A DNA stretch of 64,000 nucleotides, from sequence record PP400781. One strand, given 5' to 3'. Positions 28,491 through 49,574 of this stretch are shown here, piece by piece; the first letter of the stretch is position 1, and the number at the start of each line of letters is the position of its first letter. This DNA is from Escherichia phage FL20. Made by a program: the position numbers and the translations under genes. The notes under the pieces were generated by a model. It saw nothing but the letters and a program-made list of their open reading frames with translations. It was not told the origin of the DNA and searched no databases.

Positions 28491-30542
28491 TTACATTTTA
28501 AATTTATCTGGCATTGCGTCTACAGATACCAGATCAGCGATAAGCTGACGTAGAGTTGCCTTATCTGCTTTCTTACGTTCGGTTTTAGCTTCGGTAATAA
28601 AGCTGGAGAAAGACAGGTCAGAAGCAGGTTTAATAACACCTTCACGGATGAATGCATCACCGTCCGCGATCATCTCGCCAGATTCTTGTAATGCTGCCAG
28701 TTCATTTTTGTTCATAATATGTGCCTCAATGTAATAAGTTTCTTGTGAATCCGTCGATGCCGTAGCACGAGTTACCGTATCAAAGGATAACACAACACCG
28801 CGAGGAAGTAAAATCTCGCATTCTTTGTAAGCAAATGCTTTGTTACCTACTGGCAAGACAGGGATGTTTTCCGCGCCAGCAATGGAGAAAGCAACATTAG
28901 CGCCACCTTCACCACGAGAGCCAGCCATAGAATCAACACCAGCAACGGCACTAGCCACGTTTGCATTCCAGCCGCCAAAAATGTTAGGTGCAAGGGAAGT
29001 GCTCACATAGTTTTTAAAGTAAAACGCTTTTTGCTTACGTGCAGTTTCCCACATTTGCGACCGGAAGTCCATACCACGATACAGAATAGTACCCGGATCA
29101 AGTTTAACTCCATAGTTGGAGAAGGCATTATCCAGTGCATCACACATCTTGACCAATTCTTCTGGATCTGCGATGCCTTCAAACTCTTCCAGCTTACGGT
29201 CGGTTAGGAAGTTGTTCATATTGATGTATGCTGCATCGGCATATTCGCTCAACACAAAACCTTCCGCGCCCGGCAGATCAAGATCAATATCTGCCATCAT
29301 TTCACCCATGTTGCTAGCAATTGCTTCAAACATACCGGAAGCAACATTACGTAGGGCATCGGTTTTAATCTGGGTGATGTGACTACGCAGCATTTCAGCT
29401 TTTACATCTGCTGGCATAGACTGGTCTACTCGATCCATTGCCAGGGCGGTGATCTTGTTTTCGAATACTTCCTCGCTCATGATTTCTTTTAAGCGTTTGA
29501 TTGATGCTGCGATAACTTCCGCAGACAATGGATCATATTGATCCTGAACTTTTACCAGTTCGCTTACTGCGTATTTTGCATCGGCTTCGCTTTCAAAAAT
29601 AGTACGCATGAAACCATAGCGAGTGATAATATCACTTGTCCAGTCATTCAGAGAACGAGCGGTTGAACGTTCTAAGGCTTGACGGTCAATCAGAGTATTA
29701 AACTGTTTCTTAGGTTCTGCTTCGGTGATATCTTCTTCCGGTTTAAGATTAATTTTTTCTGGATGATTCACATAGTCGCTGTTATAGGTCGCTTGAGTTT
29801 TCAGCATTTCTTCTTTAGTCAAACGAGATTTAGCCGCTACGCGTTGTTCTGCTTCCGCGTTTCGTTCTTCTTCTGACACAAGACTAGCCGCATATGCCTC
29901 ATCTTTAGTCAGAGATTCACCAGTAGCCTTAGATACCCAGCGATCACCTAAATCACTTTCTACTTTAGTGAACAAGGATTCATCAAGTTTAATCCCTTTA
30001 ATCTTATCAATCGCCATCCCGCGACGCTTGACAACAACTAAAGCGATCTTTTTGCTGGTCATTACTTCCTGCTGGAATACTTCAAACTTCGGTGTACGAC
30101 GCACCAAACGCTCTATAACGCGCTTAACCAGTTCGGTCTTACCTTTCATGCGGGATACGTTAAAACGGAACATAACAGCGTCTAATTGCGCTTTACGGGC
30201 TGTTTCCATAACCACATCAAAAGCACTTGACATAACTGCAATCGGGTTATCGCCTAGACCATTTTTAAGCTGTACAATACGACCGCTTTTGTTCATTTCG
30301 CACAGTACAACATGTGCGGTCTTGTCACCCATACGAATGATTTTAGGTGTTTTGTTGGTGAAGTTACAAAGACGGACAATCACATCTTTATCGCGTGTCT
30401 GTACTGCAAAAAGCTGTTTAGGATTCTGCTTAGGCTTTAAGCACTGTACCGGGGCAATACTACCAAAGTTTTCTTCCTCTTCCGTCAACAGCCATTTCTC
30501 GAAAGATTCAATCATTAGATCGTCGATTTCTAAGTTAAACAT
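28491..30542 (-). CDS. alt: Alt ADP-ribosyltransferase (injected internal head protein)
   Basis: 683 aa, T4 Alt is about 682 aa; C-terminal ART motifs LYRGMDF ... FKNYVSTS ... ECEILLPRG; synteny (after gene 54). Confidence 0.85.
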   Translation of the reverse strand: MFNLEIDDLMIESFEKWLLTEEEENFGSIAPVQCLKPKQNPKQLFAVQTRDKDVIVRLCNFTNKTPKIIRMGDKTAHVVLCEMNKSGRIVQLKNGLGDNPIAVMSSAFDVVMETARKAQLDAVMFRFNVSRMKGKTELVKRVIERLVRRTPKFEVFQQEVMTSKKIALVVVKRRGMAIDKIKGIKLDESLFTKVESDLGDRWVSKATGESLTKDEAYAASLVSEEERNAEAEQRVAAKSRLTKEEMLKTQATYNSDYVNHPEKINLKPEEDITEAEPKKQFNTLIDRQALERSTARSLNDWTSDIITRYGFMRTIFESEADAKYAVSELVKVQDQYDPLSAEVIAASIKRLKEIMSEEVFENKITALAMDRVDQSMPADVKAEMLRSHITQIKTDALRNVASGMFEAIASNMGEMMADIDLDLPGAEGFVLSEYADAAYINMNNFLTDRKLEEFEGIADPEELVKMCDALDNAFSNYGVKLDPGTILYRGMDFRSQMWETARKQKAFYFKNYVSTSLAPNIFGGWNANVASAVAGVDSMAGSRGEGGANVAFSIAGAENIPVLPVGNKAFAYKECEILLPRGVVLSFDTVTRATASTDSQETYYIEAHIMNKNELAALQESGEMIADGDAFIREGVIKPASDLSFSSFITEAKTERKKADKATLRQLIADLVSVDAMPDKFKM

Positions 30543-30894: not shown

Positions 30895-31074
30895 TTAGAA
30901 CATTTTTGAAATTAATTCTGCTTTGATTTCGCAGAGAACATCTAAAGATTTCTCGTCACCCGCTTTTGCTGCTTCTGCTTGCATTTTTGAAATGGCTTCA
31001 ATGTCAGTGCAATTATAAGCCGCTTGAACTTTAGCTATTGCGATGATTGCCGATTCGATGGTTAAGTGTTTCAT
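30895..31074 (-). CDS. small hypothetical protein (59 aa), PeSL-driven
   Basis: ATG at 31074 placed via the plus-strand track ORF frame; RBS GGAGAA; N-terminus MKHLTIESAI. Confidence 0.45.
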   Translation of the reverse strand: MKHLTIESAIIAIAKVQAAYNCTDIEAISKMQAEAAKAGDEKSLDVLCEIKAELISKMF

Positions 31075-31143
31075 GTTTGATTCTCCTTTCGTTTCGGTAT
31101 GTGTGCATTATAGGGGATCACCGATCCCCCTGTCAACAATTTT
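31075..31143 (-). promoter_or_regulatory. PeSL cassette copy 2 with GGGGATC-N3-GATCCCC palindrome in the promoter spacer
   Basis: Minus strand: TTGACA-aGGGGATCggtGATCCCC-TATAAT ... GGAGAA-N6-ATG. Confidence 0.75.
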
Positions 31144-31662
31144 TTAGTTATTTTTTAATTGCTCATCTTGCAATAGGGCAATCACATGCTGGCGATGTTC
31201 TTCCGATTGAGGCACACCGAAAAAGTTTGTTTTGTAGAAATACTCTAATCGGTCTTCTCGTGTGCTCTCTTCCATCATGATCGCGGGTAGTCCGAGATTT
31301 CGGAAACGTCGCTTTTCTGCTGGCGTAAAATCACTGTAATACAACATAGAATCATCATTACAAGCAATGCTAAACTCATCCTTCATAAAGGAGAATATTG
31401 CGTTTAAACGCTGTTTACCGTCCACGATTTCGATCTCATAGCGAGAGCCATCATCAATCTTAGCCATTGCGATAGCACCAACCGGAAAATCATTAATCAG
31501 GTTTTCGATAAACATACGTTTGTTTTCGGTGTCCCATACTAAAGGACGCTGATAATCTGGGTTCATGTTGATATAGCCATCTTCTAACCATGCATCATAA
31601 ACAGAGATGACAAAGTTTTTAGTATTGGTATAGTAACGGCGTTTAGGCGTTAAACGGTTCAT
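31144..31662 (-). CDS. DUF262 / ParB-like (GmrSD N-terminal domain-like) protein
   Basis: Track ORF 31144-31698; Met13 start (RBS AGGAG) gives 172 aa; motifs YQRPLVW...LI..FPVG and the DGQQR-type box IVDGKQRL. Confidence 0.7.
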   Translation of the reverse strand: MNRLTPKRRYYTNTKNFVISVYDAWLEDGYINMNPDYQRPLVWDTENKRMFIENLINDFPVGAIAMAKIDDGSRYEIEIVDGKQRLNAIFSFMKDEFSIACNDDSMLYYSDFTPAEKRRFRNLGLPAIMMEESTREDRLEYFYKTNFFGVPQSEEHRQHVIALLQDEQLKNN

Positions 31663-31663
31663 G

Positions 31664-31996
31664 TTATAGTCTCCTGAATGGATCATCACGTAAATCAATA
31701 TCTTTTAAGAACTCATCCCATGAATGCCGGATATTGTTCTTAATTCTCCAGATAAGCGCAGGGATTGAACGCTCTCCCATCTGGAAGTATGGATCATATG
31801 ATCCGTATGCCCAATATGCTACTACAATTCCACAATCAGCGCAATAGTATTCTATTTCACTTGCTGGCGACCAAAGTCCATCAATATGATCGGTGATCTT
31901 GCTTTCGATGTTATGGCTATGACAATCAGGGCAACGGATGCAATGACCTTGTTTATCGTAATTTGACGTTAGCGAATACTTAAACAATCTCATCAT
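31664..31996 (-). CDS. zinc-ribbon protein (two CxxC pairs)
   Basis: 110 aa; CIRCPDC ... CADCG; translationally coupled within the operon. Confidence 0.6.
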   Translation of the reverse strand: MMRLFKYSLTSNYDKQGHCIRCPDCHSHNIESKITDHIDGLWSPASEIEYYCADCGIVVAYWAYGSYDPYFQMGERSIPALIWRIKNNIRHSWDEFLKDIDLRDDPFRRL

Positions 31997-32709
31997 AGAT
32001 CCTTATTTGCTTCAAATACTGCCTTTGCGAATCCTCGCGGGGTAAGTGACCTGATAGTCTTTGTTTTCGTTCCTTTCCCGCCTAGCTTAGAATGCTGTTT
32101 ACTGTACCCTTTATTAATCTGCAAAGGTTTCTTTTCTGGCATTATAAAGCCTTGTCCGGTCCATAAGCAAGTCTTTTTTGGGTACATATCACGGGCGGCA
32201 ATATACTCAGGAAACGTAGGATGCTTATCATCTTCCGGCAAATAACCGCCATATTCCCACGGATGGAACATATAATCAGGCTTACGCCACATGCTAGAGA
32301 TAACGCTTACAGGATTCTCTATCATGTAGGGAACTCCTAGCCATTCACCCAAATAAGCGGTTATTTTAGCTGCCCTTACATCATGAACTTGAATCAATGG
32401 TCCTTGTTCTAGTTTCTTTCGTTCAAAGTGCGCAGCGCCACTAACAGCTAAATTGGTGCACGGTGGGAATGCAAAGATAATATCCGGTTTCCCCCATTCA
32501 AGGTCCATTGCTCTTTCCAGCCAATTCAAATCAATCCAGGTGTTTACATAGGTAATGTTTTGATGTTCAAATCGGGTATTATATTTTTTGTATGTACCGT
32601 GGTCGCCATCATCAGCATTAAAGCAGATCACCTTATGACCTGCTTTAGCCCATTCTAGCCCCATTATCCCCGATCCGTCAAAGTTGCAGAATATTAATTT
32701 TTGTTTCAT
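31993..32709 (-). CDS. C5-cytosine methyltransferase catalytic core lacking a target-recognition domain (238 aa)
   Basis: Motif I-like FCNFDGSGIMGLEWAKAG, motif IV FAFPPCTNLAVSG (Pro-Cys catalytic dipeptide), motif VI MIENP, motif IX-like TIRSLTPRGFAKAV; too short for a canonical enzyme with TRD. Confidence 0.6.
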   Translation of the reverse strand: MKQKLIFCNFDGSGIMGLEWAKAGHKVICFNADDGDHGTYKKYNTRFEHQNITYVNTWIDLNWLERAMDLEWGKPDIIFAFPPCTNLAVSGAAHFERKKLEQGPLIQVHDVRAAKITAYLGEWLGVPYMIENPVSVISSMWRKPDYMFHPWEYGGYLPEDDKHPTFPEYIAARDMYPKKTCLWTGQGFIMPEKKPLQINKGYSKQHSKLGGKGTKTKTIRSLTPRGFAKAVFEANKDL

Positions 32710-32951
32710 ATACGACCCTTTAACCCAGCACAGATTTTAGTCGGTTCTTTACCGTGCCACATTAAGTAAAGTCCGTTAATGCGACCTTGTTTTGTGTGTG
32801 ATTCTTTTCTGATCTTCTTATAGTGTCGTGCTTCCTCAACCGATTGTTTAGAATACCAATCATAAAGGAAGAGGAACAAAGGCCAGCCATTAGCGACCTT
32901 AATACAGTTATTCAAAAATTCCTTATTTCGTTTAATTAATTTTCTTTTCAC
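32706..32951 (-). CDS. hypothetical basic protein (81 aa)
   Basis: ORF with 4-bp overlaps to both neighbours in the operon. Confidence 0.5.
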   Translation of the reverse strand: MKRKLIKRNKEFLNNCIKVANGWPLFLFLYDWYSKQSVEEARHYKKIRKESHTKQGRINGLYLMWHGKEPTKICAGLKGRI

Positions 32952-33199
32952 GCTGCCCCCATTGGTTTGATAGTAACAGAATCTAAAAGACCTTTGTTAG
33001 CCAGTTCGCGGCAAGTTTTCAGATCCGCAACTTCCCAGCCAGCCGCAATCAGGTTATCAATCAGGCTGTTAGCAACTTCTTCGCTCATGAAAGAGCACTG
33101 TTTGCCGATGGTGTAGCGCACACGCTGTAATTTCAGTTTACGGAAGCCTTTAACGTTCAGGTCTTTAGCGATTTTCTTTGCGGTTTCGATGTTAGCCAT
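32948..33199 (-). CDS. hypothetical protein (83 aa), first gene of the PeSL-driven operon
   Basis: ORF immediately downstream of PeSL copy 3. Confidence 0.55.
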   Translation of the reverse strand: MANIETAKKIAKDLNVKGFRKLKLQRVRYTIGKQCSFMSEEVANSLIDNLIAAGWEVADLKTCRELANKGLLDSVTIKPMGAA

Positions 33200-33280
33200 T
33201 GTTTGATTCTCCTAAGTGGTATCTCGTCTTGATGGTTGTATTGTAGGGGAGTTATCCTCCCCTGTCAACACTTTTTATAA
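33200..33280 (-). promoter_or_regulatory. PeSL cassette copy 3 (palindrome ggggag-ttatc-ctcccc in spacer)
   Basis: Minus strand: TTGACA-GGGGAGgataaCTCCCC-TACAAT ... GGAGAA ... ATG. Confidence 0.75.
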
Positions 33281-33315
33281 AATTATTTGTTAATTTCTGG
33301 TGCGTTGCTAGGATA

Positions 33316-33450
33316 TTAACCTTCTTTAACTCCGAGGTATTTCGCAACCATCCCTACAATCTTCTGTGCTACTACAATGTCAAATTTCAGATAATCTTCG
33401 CCGTGGGTTTCAATGATATATGCTTCACATGCTGCTTTAGTCTCGAACAT
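33316..33450 (-). CDS. small protein (44 aa), nonsense-truncated paralog of ORF 36566-36733 (approximate ends)
   Basis: MFETKAACEAYIIETHGEDYLKFDIVVAQKIVGMVAKYLGVKEG; the paralog continues ...YYPSNAPEINK, and here that tail is still readable after a TAC to TAA change. Confidence 0.45.
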   Translation of the reverse strand: MFETKAACEAYIIETHGEDYLKFDIVVAQKIVGMVAKYLGVKEG

Positions 33451-33526
33451 TTTTATTCTCCTATTTCGTTTCGTTATGTGTGTATTATAGGGGATCTCCC
33501 GATCCCCGTCAACAACTTTTTTAAAA
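33451..33526 (-). promoter_or_regulatory. PeSL cassette copy 4 (GGGGATCtcccGATCCCC palindrome)
   Basis: As copy 2; -35 variant TTGACG. Confidence 0.7.
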
Positions 33527-36733: not shown

Positions 36734-36803
36734 TTTTGATTCTCCTATATCTCGTTGGTATGTGTGCATTATAGGGGATCACCGATCCCCTGTCAACAAC
36801 TTT
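36734..36803 (-). promoter_or_regulatory. PeSL cassette copy 9 (GGGGATCaccGATCCCC palindrome)
   Basis: As copy 2. Confidence 0.75.
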
Positions 36804-38158: not shown

Positions 38159-38234
38159 TTTTGATTCTCCTAGTTCGTTTCGGTATGTGTGTATTATAGG
38201 GGATCGGTGATCCCCTGTCAACAACTTTTCTGAA
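38159..38234 (-). promoter_or_regulatory. PeSL cassette copy 10 (GGGGATCggtGATCCCC palindrome)
   Basis: As copy 2. Confidence 0.75.
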
Positions 38235-49506: not shown

Positions 49507-49574
49507 AATAAAATCCTCACTTGTTTTTGATGGTTGTATTATAGCGGGGATTTCTCCCCGCGTCAACACTTATT
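49507..49574 (-). promoter_or_regulatory. PeSL cassette copy 15 (palindrome gcgggga-tttc-tccccgc)
   Basis: Conserved layout immediately downstream of nrdA. Confidence 0.65.

Follow-up and report, generated by a model that had tools for sequence, protein, structure and literature searches.

The five minus-strand genes within positions 31,144 to 33,280 of the window (the whole 64,000-nucleotide stretch of Escherichia phage FL20 DNA analysed here, record PP400781) are a real early operon, a single translationally coupled unit fronted by a PeSL (promoter-early stem-loop). The best overall explanation, to which we give a probability of about 0.75, is that the operon is a string of accessory genes in which the third gene encodes a stand-alone Dcm-like methylase and the products of the other four are not its subunits. 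An earlier note on this DNA had described the block as a single multi-subunit machine with no described counterpart. The coupled unit, the zinc ribbon and the DUF262 protein of that reading stood, whereas the single machine and the absence of a matching described system did not. The main value of the analysis is a clarified annotation, from an "unnamed machine" to a string of mobile accessory genes bounded by PeSLs, with the methylase a predicted ortholog of a phage enzyme already shown to be active alone and to trigger retron Ec86.

A PeSL-bounded early operon

The window is 98% identical to RB49, which has an identical set of five CDSs, and the source phage is an RB49-like (Krischvirus) coliphage. 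The ORF calls and the sequence showed three 4-bp overlaps and one 1-nt gap at the four junctions between the five minus-strand ORFs. Gene 1 (RB49 p190, 32948..33199, 83 aa) shares a GTGA overlap with gene 2 (p189.1, 32706..32951, 81 aa), which has a GTG start. ATGA overlaps join gene 2 to gene 3 (p189, 31993..32709, 238 aa), the predicted Dcm-like C5-cytosine DNA methyltransferase, and gene 3 to gene 4 (p188, 31664..31996, 110 aa), which encodes a CxxC...CxxC zinc ribbon. Gene 5 (p187, 31144..31662, 172 aa, DUF262/GmrSD_N) follows gene 4 after the 1-nt gap. The annotations of GEC-3S and RB49 contain five matching CDSs, and that of GEC-3S also has a promoter at the position of the upstream PeSL. 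The PeSL-driven coupled operon of five genes proposed earlier is thus borne out by the ORF coordinates, the overlaps, the upstream PeSL and the annotations of the two relatives.

PeSLs of RB49-type phages have been defined previously (PMC2839356, PMC4122927). The upstream PeSL (33240..33269, minus strand) is a sigma-70-type early promoter with TTGACA, a 17-nt spacer and TACAAT, and its spacer holds a GGGGAG...CTCCCC hairpin (fold z -4.9). The downstream PeSL (31107..31136, minus strand) has TTGACA, an 18-nt spacer, TATAAT and a GGGGGATC...GATCCCC hairpin. It lies immediately past the stop codon of gene 5, closes the five-gene unit and drives the next gene. The PeSL consensus has five matches in the 64-kb window vs. 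none expected; the -35 and -10 hexamers, the G/C-rich hairpin in the spacer and the repetition between small early genes are those of the PeSL class. In Krischvirus SAP, the downstream PeSL is duplicated in tandem (79 bp).

The Dcm-like protein p189

The product of gene 3, p189, is predicted from its sequence and modelled structure to be a short stand-alone phage Dcm-like C5-cytosine DNA methyltransferase, with Cys84, Glu131 and Lys178/179 as predicted catalytic residues. It matches PHROG 757 "DNA methyltransferase" over residues 1-237 (E 2.1e-89), and "DNA methyltransferase" is also the RefSeq name of the RB49 protein. Searches of the family gave 7311 database homologs of ~230 aa and 1136 cluster representatives, and homologs are present in 1520 phage records, 1434 of them with at least 80% of the protein covered. 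The C5-MTase motifs quoted in the earlier note (I, IV, VI and the motif IX-like TIRSLTPRG) were all found, as F10xG12S13G14 (I), P83C84 (IV), E131N132P133 (VI) and R220SLTPRG226, and are invariant in homologs. Residues F10, G12, S13, G14, P82, P83, C84, E131, N132 and P133 do not vary among 23 homologs, nor do C84, E131, P133, K178 and R220 among 50 diverse family members.

Pfam PF00145 did not reach significance on p189 (13.5 bits, below the cutoff of 22; E 0.048; match confined to the N-terminal 84 residues), and reached E<0.01 in one of the 50 family members. A phmmer search of p189 against PDB sequences found nothing, the 50-sequence family profile against PDB sequences gave noise only, with M.HaeIII at E 0.8, and NCBIfam had no match for four of the five block proteins. 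The AF2 model of p189 (pLDDT 92.6, pTM 0.90) has a SAM-MTase Rossmann fold nearest to the C5-MTases. Structurally, it resembles DNA MTases most closely (DNMT3B/3A and a prophage MTase), and 192 of the 238 residues align onto the DNMT3B catalytic core. The C5-MTase assignment is based on the structure and PHROG 757, with PF00145 below its cutoff; the fold expected in the earlier note was recovered, and the expected Pfam hit was not.

A separate target-recognition domain is absent from the AF2 model, in which ~35 residues lie between the strand at 180-185 and R220SLTPRG. That 238 aa leave no room for such a domain, as had been proposed, agrees with the share of the protein already taken up by the DNMT3B-like core. 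The segment standing in for the recognition domain is not variable but ranks with the best-conserved regions of the family, and this conservation extends over thousands of phages. Neither the canonical motif VIII QxRxR nor motif X is recognisable in p189. In comparison with the DNMT3A/DNMT3B catalytic domain and the classical C5-MTases (M.HhaI, M.HaeIII and E. coli Dcm), p189 is ~90-230 residues shorter, and it differs from them in the missing recognition domain, the unrecognisable motifs VIII and X and the subthreshold PF00145 score. To our knowledge, Dcm-like proteins of ~235 aa are among the smallest active DNA C5-methyltransferases.

The closest described family is that of the BASEL annotation "Dcm-like C5 cytosine methyltransferase" and PHROG 757. 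The earlier view that the architecture lacks a described counterpart is not upheld, since p189 falls in this widely annotated family and the RB49 protein carries a name in RefSeq. Full-length comparison showed 55% identity (E 2e-95) between p189 and the Warwickvirus protein tonijn_41, whose gene length of 711 bp and residues C82, E128, K175 and K176 match the values published for the Dcm of phage K42. These K42-numbered residues align with C84, E131, K178 and K179 of p189, of which the first three are invariant in the 50 members, and K178/K179 sit where the K42 paper places substrate binding. K42 Dcm expressed alone raised 5mC on msDNA (LC-MS) and triggered retron Ec86, and the 5mC rise was abolished in the quadruple mutant C82A/E128A/K175A/K176A; the CCWGG specificity of the enzyme was assumed from analogy with host Dcm and not mapped (bioRxiv 10.1101/2023.08.16.553469). 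The K42/KarlJaspers-type Warwickvirus Dcm belongs to the same family as p189 (236 vs. 238 aa), with which it shares the catalytic residues and a DNMT3-like compact fold. However, it is encoded by a T1-like siphovirus, whereas p189 is encoded by a T4-type myovirus (Krischvirus) within a PeSL-bounded five-gene early unit. Asn31 of p189, at the end of strand 2 where Asp is found family-wide, was considered as an inactivating substitution and rejected, as tonijn_41, which fits the K42 Dcm numbering, shares the Asn.

CCWGG is the most depleted 5-mer of the 64-kb window (21 sites, ~0.16% of window cytosines) and is a candidate target site of p189. No modified nucleoside was detected by HPLC-MS in TB34 DNA (PMC13390438), and RB49 DNA is cleavable by HpaII and NheI (PMC4041780); methylation of the virion DNA is therefore sparse, if any. 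A target site as rare as CCWGG would be compatible with such reports of "unmodified" DNA.

The same two reports, with the unrecognisable motifs VIII and X and the subthreshold PF00145 score, would also fit a p189 that is not a DNA methylase during Krischvirus infection, and that acts instead on RNA (Dnmt2-like), uses another cofactor (cf. the Cx-SAM carboxymethyltransferase) or binds without catalysis. We regard this as unlikely: the K42 homolog raises DNA 5mC in vivo through residues whose equivalents are conserved in p189, the top structural matches are DNA MTases, and methylation at rare sites would evade bulk HPLC and leave cutting by the methyl-sensitive HpaII and NheI unblocked. A different chemistry is raised by Krischvirus SAP, in which modified cytosines (hmC/glucosyl-hmC) have been reported without known pathway genes (PMC13390438), and the block might be their source if the C5-MTase-like enzyme served as a hydroxymethylase with partner proteins. 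SAP and TB34 differ in few places, one of which, the PeSL duplication just downstream of the operon, is in line with this idea. However, SAP does not differ from the unmodified TB34 in any of the five coding sequences, for which reason the block was rejected as the cause of their difference in modification; the duplication lies past the operon end, a glycosyltransferase is absent, the product of the K42 homolog is 5mC, and a mixed DNA preparation may explain the SAP result. A role of the block in the SAP modification is extremely improbable.

The proteins encoded beside p189

The double-CxxC zinc ribbon described in the earlier note is present in p188 (C22xxC25 and C52xxC55), though below Pfam cutoffs (Zn_Ribbon_TF, E 5.6e-4), and the protein matches PHROG 2993 (E 5e-34). 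Its homologs occur in Nonagvirus, Felixounavirus and other phages (292 phage records by tblastn; one cluster in the word-indexed homolog search), and in JenK1, the sole context checked, no MTase lies beside the p188 homolog.

The DUF262 assignment of gene 5 was confirmed by a significant PF03235 match of p187 (72.7 bits vs. a cutoff of 33.2, E 5.9e-20) and by the motifs YQRPLVW and DGKQRL; PADLOC NsnA matches at E 6e-20. YQR..VW, DGKQRL and GVPQSxEH are invariant in homologs, as are D81, G82, K83, Q84 and R85 individually. A C-terminal DUF1524/HNH nuclease was not found in p187, which ends at residue 172 with no second Pfam or PADLOC domain, and the short form is kept in homologs of 161-176 aa. 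Most likely, p187 has a ParB/Srx fold and binds NTPs but lacks nuclease activity. Its AF2 model is poor (pLDDT 58.7, from 7 sequences), and the Foldseek matches of that model (Noc, ParB and BrxU) all have E values of at least 0.3 and are given no weight here. The type IV enzymes GmrSD, BrxU and SspE and the Menshen protein NsnA have in common with p187 an N-terminal DUF262 (ParB/Srx-like) domain with YQR and DGxQR. However, p187 has only 172 aa, is devoid of DUF1524/HNH or another effector domain and, unlike these defence proteins, is encoded by a lytic phage and recurs as a short form in RB43-like, Slopekvirus-like and P22-like phages. Homologs of p187 were found in 326 phage records by tblastn (seven relatives in the word-indexed search). 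In RB43 and the P22-like UPF_BP1 they stand alone, without an MTase neighbour, and such short stand-alone DUF262 proteins recur across several phage groups.

The two remaining products are small. p190 matches PHROG 14908, labelled unknown function, has a weak PADLOC match to part of DRT RT_UG35 (E 2.6e-5) and occurs in 56 phage records, all Krischvirus-like (tblastn). p189.1 matches PHROG 7065 and has homologs of ~35% identity in T5-like, Dhakavirus and Karamvirus phages (171 phage records). p189.1 is dispensable, as Krischvirus UPWr_E1 carries a precise deletion of its gene with the MTase intact. The MTase of UPWr_E1 is annotated as N-terminally truncated; translation from a GTG start shows that the protein is in fact intact.

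Relationship of the neighbours to the methylase

Homologs of p190, p189.1, p188 and p187 were found within 4 kb of the MTase gene at none of 83 non-Krischvirus loci, a count to be read with the limited sensitivity of single-sequence phmmer for proteins of 80-110 aa. Neighbour families are each shared by at most 15 of the 83 loci, and p189 thus stands without an obligatory neighbour family. DNA-level matches to non-Krischvirus phages cover the MTase segment and none of the rest of the block. The numbers of phage records differ from gene to gene (p190, 56; p189.1, 171; p189, 1520; p188, 292; p187, 326). Within the genus, 56 Krischvirus records keep the block together, with 95-99% identity. Translational coupling and such joint retention are also expected of a complex. 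The conservation looked for in the earlier note is thus seen within Krischvirus, but the partners do not accompany the MTase elsewhere and the block varies within the genus, with the p189.1 deletion in UPWr_E1 and an extra ORF between p188 and p187 in FL04. The lack of co-occurrence suggests that the partners function independently of the MTase.

The earlier note had proposed that the five products, or at least the MTase, the zinc ribbon and the DUF262 protein, form one modification, anti-restriction or exclusion machine whose catalytic core is targeted or activated by its neighbours. Tight coupling under a single promoter, the shared conservation of the block in Krischvirus and an MTase without a separate recognition lobe are compatible with this proposal, and two-subunit C5-MTases exist (M.AquI and M.EcoHK31I). 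There is also a precedent in the activation of phage DNA-modifying enzymes by ParB-fold proteins (PMC13229309), from which p187 may have a modulatory role. In the ParB-dependent phage 5-methylpyrimidine dioxygenases of that study, a ParB-superfamily gene likewise lies beside the gene of a DNA-modifying enzyme. However, their ParB gene co-occurs across the clade and is needed for activity, whereas the pairing of p187 with the MTase is limited to one genus and the p189-family enzyme of K42 works alone. The machine is unlikely on further grounds: the partners are missing at all 83 outside loci, the genes differ in phage distribution, the block tolerates the loss in UPWr_E1 and the insertion in FL04, and little can be learned from conservation within a single genus whose DNA is 98% identical. 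Speaking against a dependence of the MTase core on partners is the 55%-identical tonijn_41-type homolog, which fits K42 Dcm, reported active alone in E. coli (bioRxiv 10.1101/2023.08.16.553469). A narrower version, in which the Krischvirus methylase depends on or is redirected by the co-translated zinc-ribbon and DUF262 proteins as a three-part NTP-gated cytosine module, possibly tied to the SAP modification, seems very unlikely; if true, it would parallel the ParB-activated phage dioxygenases.

The preferred reading remains a string of accessory genes around a stand-alone methylase. The block would be a single early transcription unit within a hyperplastic part of the Krischvirus genome, with PeSL promoter/terminator cassettes at its borders and, strung together between them, five small accessory genes that arose independently. 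The zinc-ribbon, DUF262-only and two small ORF products would be separate accessory proteins and not methylase subunits. In p189, the FxGSG loop would bind SAM, Cys84 of the PPC motif would attack C6 of a flipped-out cytosine and Glu131 of the ENP motif would activate the base. The DNA would be held by Lys178/Lys179 and the highly conserved 150-220 segment, which would replace the recognition lobe as in DNMT3A/B. At an early stage of infection, the enzyme likely methylates phage and cell DNA at a short, rare site, which would blunt methylation-sensitive restriction. The cost of such methylases would be that they can be sensed by retron Ec86/Eco1.

Operon structure and promoter cassettes

Positions 31000-33400 of the window share 97-99% identity with more than 50 Krischvirus genomes (RB49, phi1, JSE, GEC-3S, TB34 and others). 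Five ORFs occupy 33199-31144 on the minus strand; neighbouring ORFs overlap at GTGA or ATGA or are separated by a single spacer base. Their RB49 counterparts are p190, p189.1, p189, p188 and p187, and the RefSeq name for p189 is 'DNA methyltransferase'. In the promoter-early stem-loop (PeSL) cassette upstream (33268-33240, minus strand), the hexamers TTGACA and TACAAT are 17 nt apart and the spacer contains a GGGGAG/CTCCCC hairpin (-19.4 kcal/mol, z -4.9); the same promoter is annotated in GEC-3S. The second cassette (31136-31107, minus strand) follows the last stop codon of the operon. The PeSL consensus occurs five times in the window versus none in shuffles, and PeSLs are known from RB49 and phi1 as composite promoter/terminator elements (PMC2839356, PMC4122927). 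The ORFs, overlaps and PeSL all confirm the proposal of a five-gene unit behind one early promoter cassette.

More cassettes of the same -35/hairpin/-10 design lie on the minus strand at 33484-33513, 36768-36797, 38193-38222 and 49538-49567. The loop sequences of those at 36768 and 38193 are mutually inverted (GGGGATCGGTGATCCCC vs. GGGGATCACCGATCCCC). Downstream of the five genes are two small ORFs and then an alt gene (28491-30542, minus strand). Its 683-aa product matches PHROG 802 (E 2e-179) and Pfam ADPrib_exo_Tox and is an Alt-like RNA polymerase ADP-ribosyltransferase. Just beyond this gene, the RB49 annotation has a second, C-terminal Alt-like gene.

The methyltransferase p189 and its neighbours

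The 238-aa methyltransferase (MTase) p189 (31993-32709) adds a new, as yet uncharacterised member to a methylase family that is known and already annotated. Its placement by profile searches held for PHROG 757 'DNA methyltransferase' (E 2e-89) but not for PF00145, where the score of 13.5 bits is below the Pfam gathering score of 22 and just 1 of 50 family members gave E<0.01. PDB sequence searches with p189 yielded no useful match. The family comprises 7311 matches in a word-indexed search, 1136 cluster representatives and 1520 phage genomes, spanning Drexlerviridae, Dhillonvirus, Vequintavirinae and Webervirus, among others, and many members carry the label 'Dcm' or 'Dcm-like C5 cytosine methyltransferase'. 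Across 23 homologs there is no variation in FxGSG, PPC(T), ENP and RSLTPRG, nor in C84, E131, P133, K178 and R220 across 50 members with 33-53% identity to p189.

The AF2 model built from the 50-member alignment is confident (pLDDT 92.6, pTM 0.90), and by this model p189 is predicted to be a DNMT3-like compact enzyme. The K178/K179 strand and the motif-IX-like helix are only ~35 residues apart, so that the earlier note's description of a catalytic core without a recognition domain is borne out at the fold level. Within the family this segment is among the best conserved, pointing to a single conserved substrate and not to diversified specificities. The unmapped specificity of such minimal C5-MTases is still of interest.

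The domain calls made for the neighbouring products were also largely right. The 172-aa p187 is a DUF262/GmrSD_N protein (Pfam E 5.9e-20; PADLOC NsnA E 6e-20), as proposed; YQR..VW, DGKQRL and GVPQSxEH are invariant in its homologs, and it has no nuclease domain. Its AF2 model is poor (pLDDT 58.7), and weak Foldseek matches to ParB, Noc and BrxU were therefore discounted as evidence. The role of such stand-alone phage DUF262 proteins is of interest. The proposed double-CxxC zinc ribbon p188 (110 aa) contains the two CxxC pairs and is assigned to PHROG 2993, but its zinc-ribbon Pfam matches are under threshold. For p190 and p189.1, the matching PHROGs are of unknown function. Separately, PADLOC aligns p190 (32948-33199, minus strand) weakly with residues 722-785 of RT_UG35, a DRT reverse transcriptase model (E 2.6e-5).

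CCWGG sites and the K42 Dcm relative

Of all 1024 5-mers, CCWGG (CCAGG/CCTGG) is the most strongly depleted in the window: it has 21 sites vs. 52.7 +/- 6.8 in shuffles, and a third-order Markov model gives an observed/expected ratio of 0.30; one site (32536-32540) lies inside the MTase gene. CCAAG/CTTGG rank 3-4 in depletion, and GGWCC and CTAGG are not depleted in the window. CCWGG is thus under selection or mutation pressure in FL20, suggesting EcoRII-type restriction avoidance or decay by 5mC deamination. CCWGG is a candidate target of p189, which the depletion itself does not establish. If it is the target, the 21 sites would represent ~0.16% of the window's cytosines (calculated at about 40% G+C). 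TB34 DNA shows canonical nucleosides only by HPLC-MS (PMC13390438), and HpaII and NheI cut RB49 DNA (PMC4041780); both results are compatible with a rare-site methylase.

Phage K42, which is related to KarlJaspers/Bas06, escapes retron Ec86 through mutations in a 711-bp 'Dcm' gene (10.1101/2023.08.16.553469). Expressed from pBAD with no partner, K42 Dcm increased 5mC in msDNA by LC-MS and activated the retron, whereas C82A/E128A/K175A/K176A did neither (10.1101/2023.08.16.553469). The authors report DNMT3A as the structural match and assumed the CCWGG specificity from host Dcm, with mutation of the msDNA site as the sole support (10.1101/2023.08.16.553469). The 711-bp Warwickvirus gene tonijn_41 encodes a product with C82, E128, K175 and K176 at the K42 Dcm numbering and 55% full-length identity to p189 (E 2e-95). 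Judged by the residue numbering of tonijn_41, gene length and taxonomy, p189 has a CHARACTERISED relative in K42 Dcm.

The Krischvirus SAP is reported to contain hmC and glucosyl-hmC, for which there are no known pathway genes, and TB34 canonical C, at 99.96% identity between the two (PMC13390438). Over the 3.4 kb compared, the five coding sequences are identical, so the block does not account for this difference. SAP has a 79-bp tandem PeSL duplication just 3' of the DUF262 gene (window ~31095-31180; L003:572-688 of SAP vs. L004, TB34); the only other differences are two indels (T5/T6) in homopolymers of upstream PeSLs.

Independent distribution of the five genes

The earlier note had interpreted the five products as one multi-subunit machine. 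The genes are translationally coupled, and within a single genus the DNA of the block is conserved (98% identity). However, these features are outweighed by the distribution, context and variation of the genes. A phmmer search (E<1e-3, 4 kb radius) found homologs of p190, p189.1, p188 or p187 near the MTase homolog at none of 83 other viral contig/genome loci, where no recurrent neighbour family was common to more than 15. Outside Krischvirus, DNA-level matches to the block (~570 records) cover the MTase segment only. The numbers of phage records (56 for p190, 171 for p189.1, 1520 for p189, 292 for p188 and 326 for p187) and the phage groups differ: p190 is confined to Krischvirus, p189.1 occurs elsewhere in T5-like phages and Dhakavirus, p188 in Nonagvirus and Felixounavirus, and p187 in RB43-like, Slopekvirus-like and P22-like phages. 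The MTase was not found beside DUF262 or zinc-ribbon homologs in the contexts inspected (RB43, UPF_BP1, JenK1).

The block also varies within the genus. In UPWr_E1, p189.1 is precisely deleted (window 32709-32934). Its 5' end (GTGAAAAGAAAATTAAT) resembles that of the MTase gene (ATGAAACAAAAATTAAT), and recombination between the two removed p189.1 but left the MTase intact with a GTG start; GenBank places the start at Met16. FL04 has an extra 180-nt ORF (59 aa, MITPQLHGKEICDL...) between the zinc-ribbon and DUF262 genes (window 31662/31664). Both changes represent modular shuffling typical of PeSL regions. The K42 Dcm homolog also functions alone. Several independent tests speak against an integrated machine, a reading that is unsupported and quite improbable. 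A modulatory role for the ParB-fold p187 is still conceivable, since ParB-dependent phage dioxygenases exist (PMC13229309).

No SIR2-family gene was seen beside the Dcm-like gene in the window. Two unrelated phages or contigs, Salmonella phage SE131 (L095:11084-12533) and L006:4001-6313, do have a SIR2-family gene next or close to the short Dcm-like gene, which may be a recurrent pairing.
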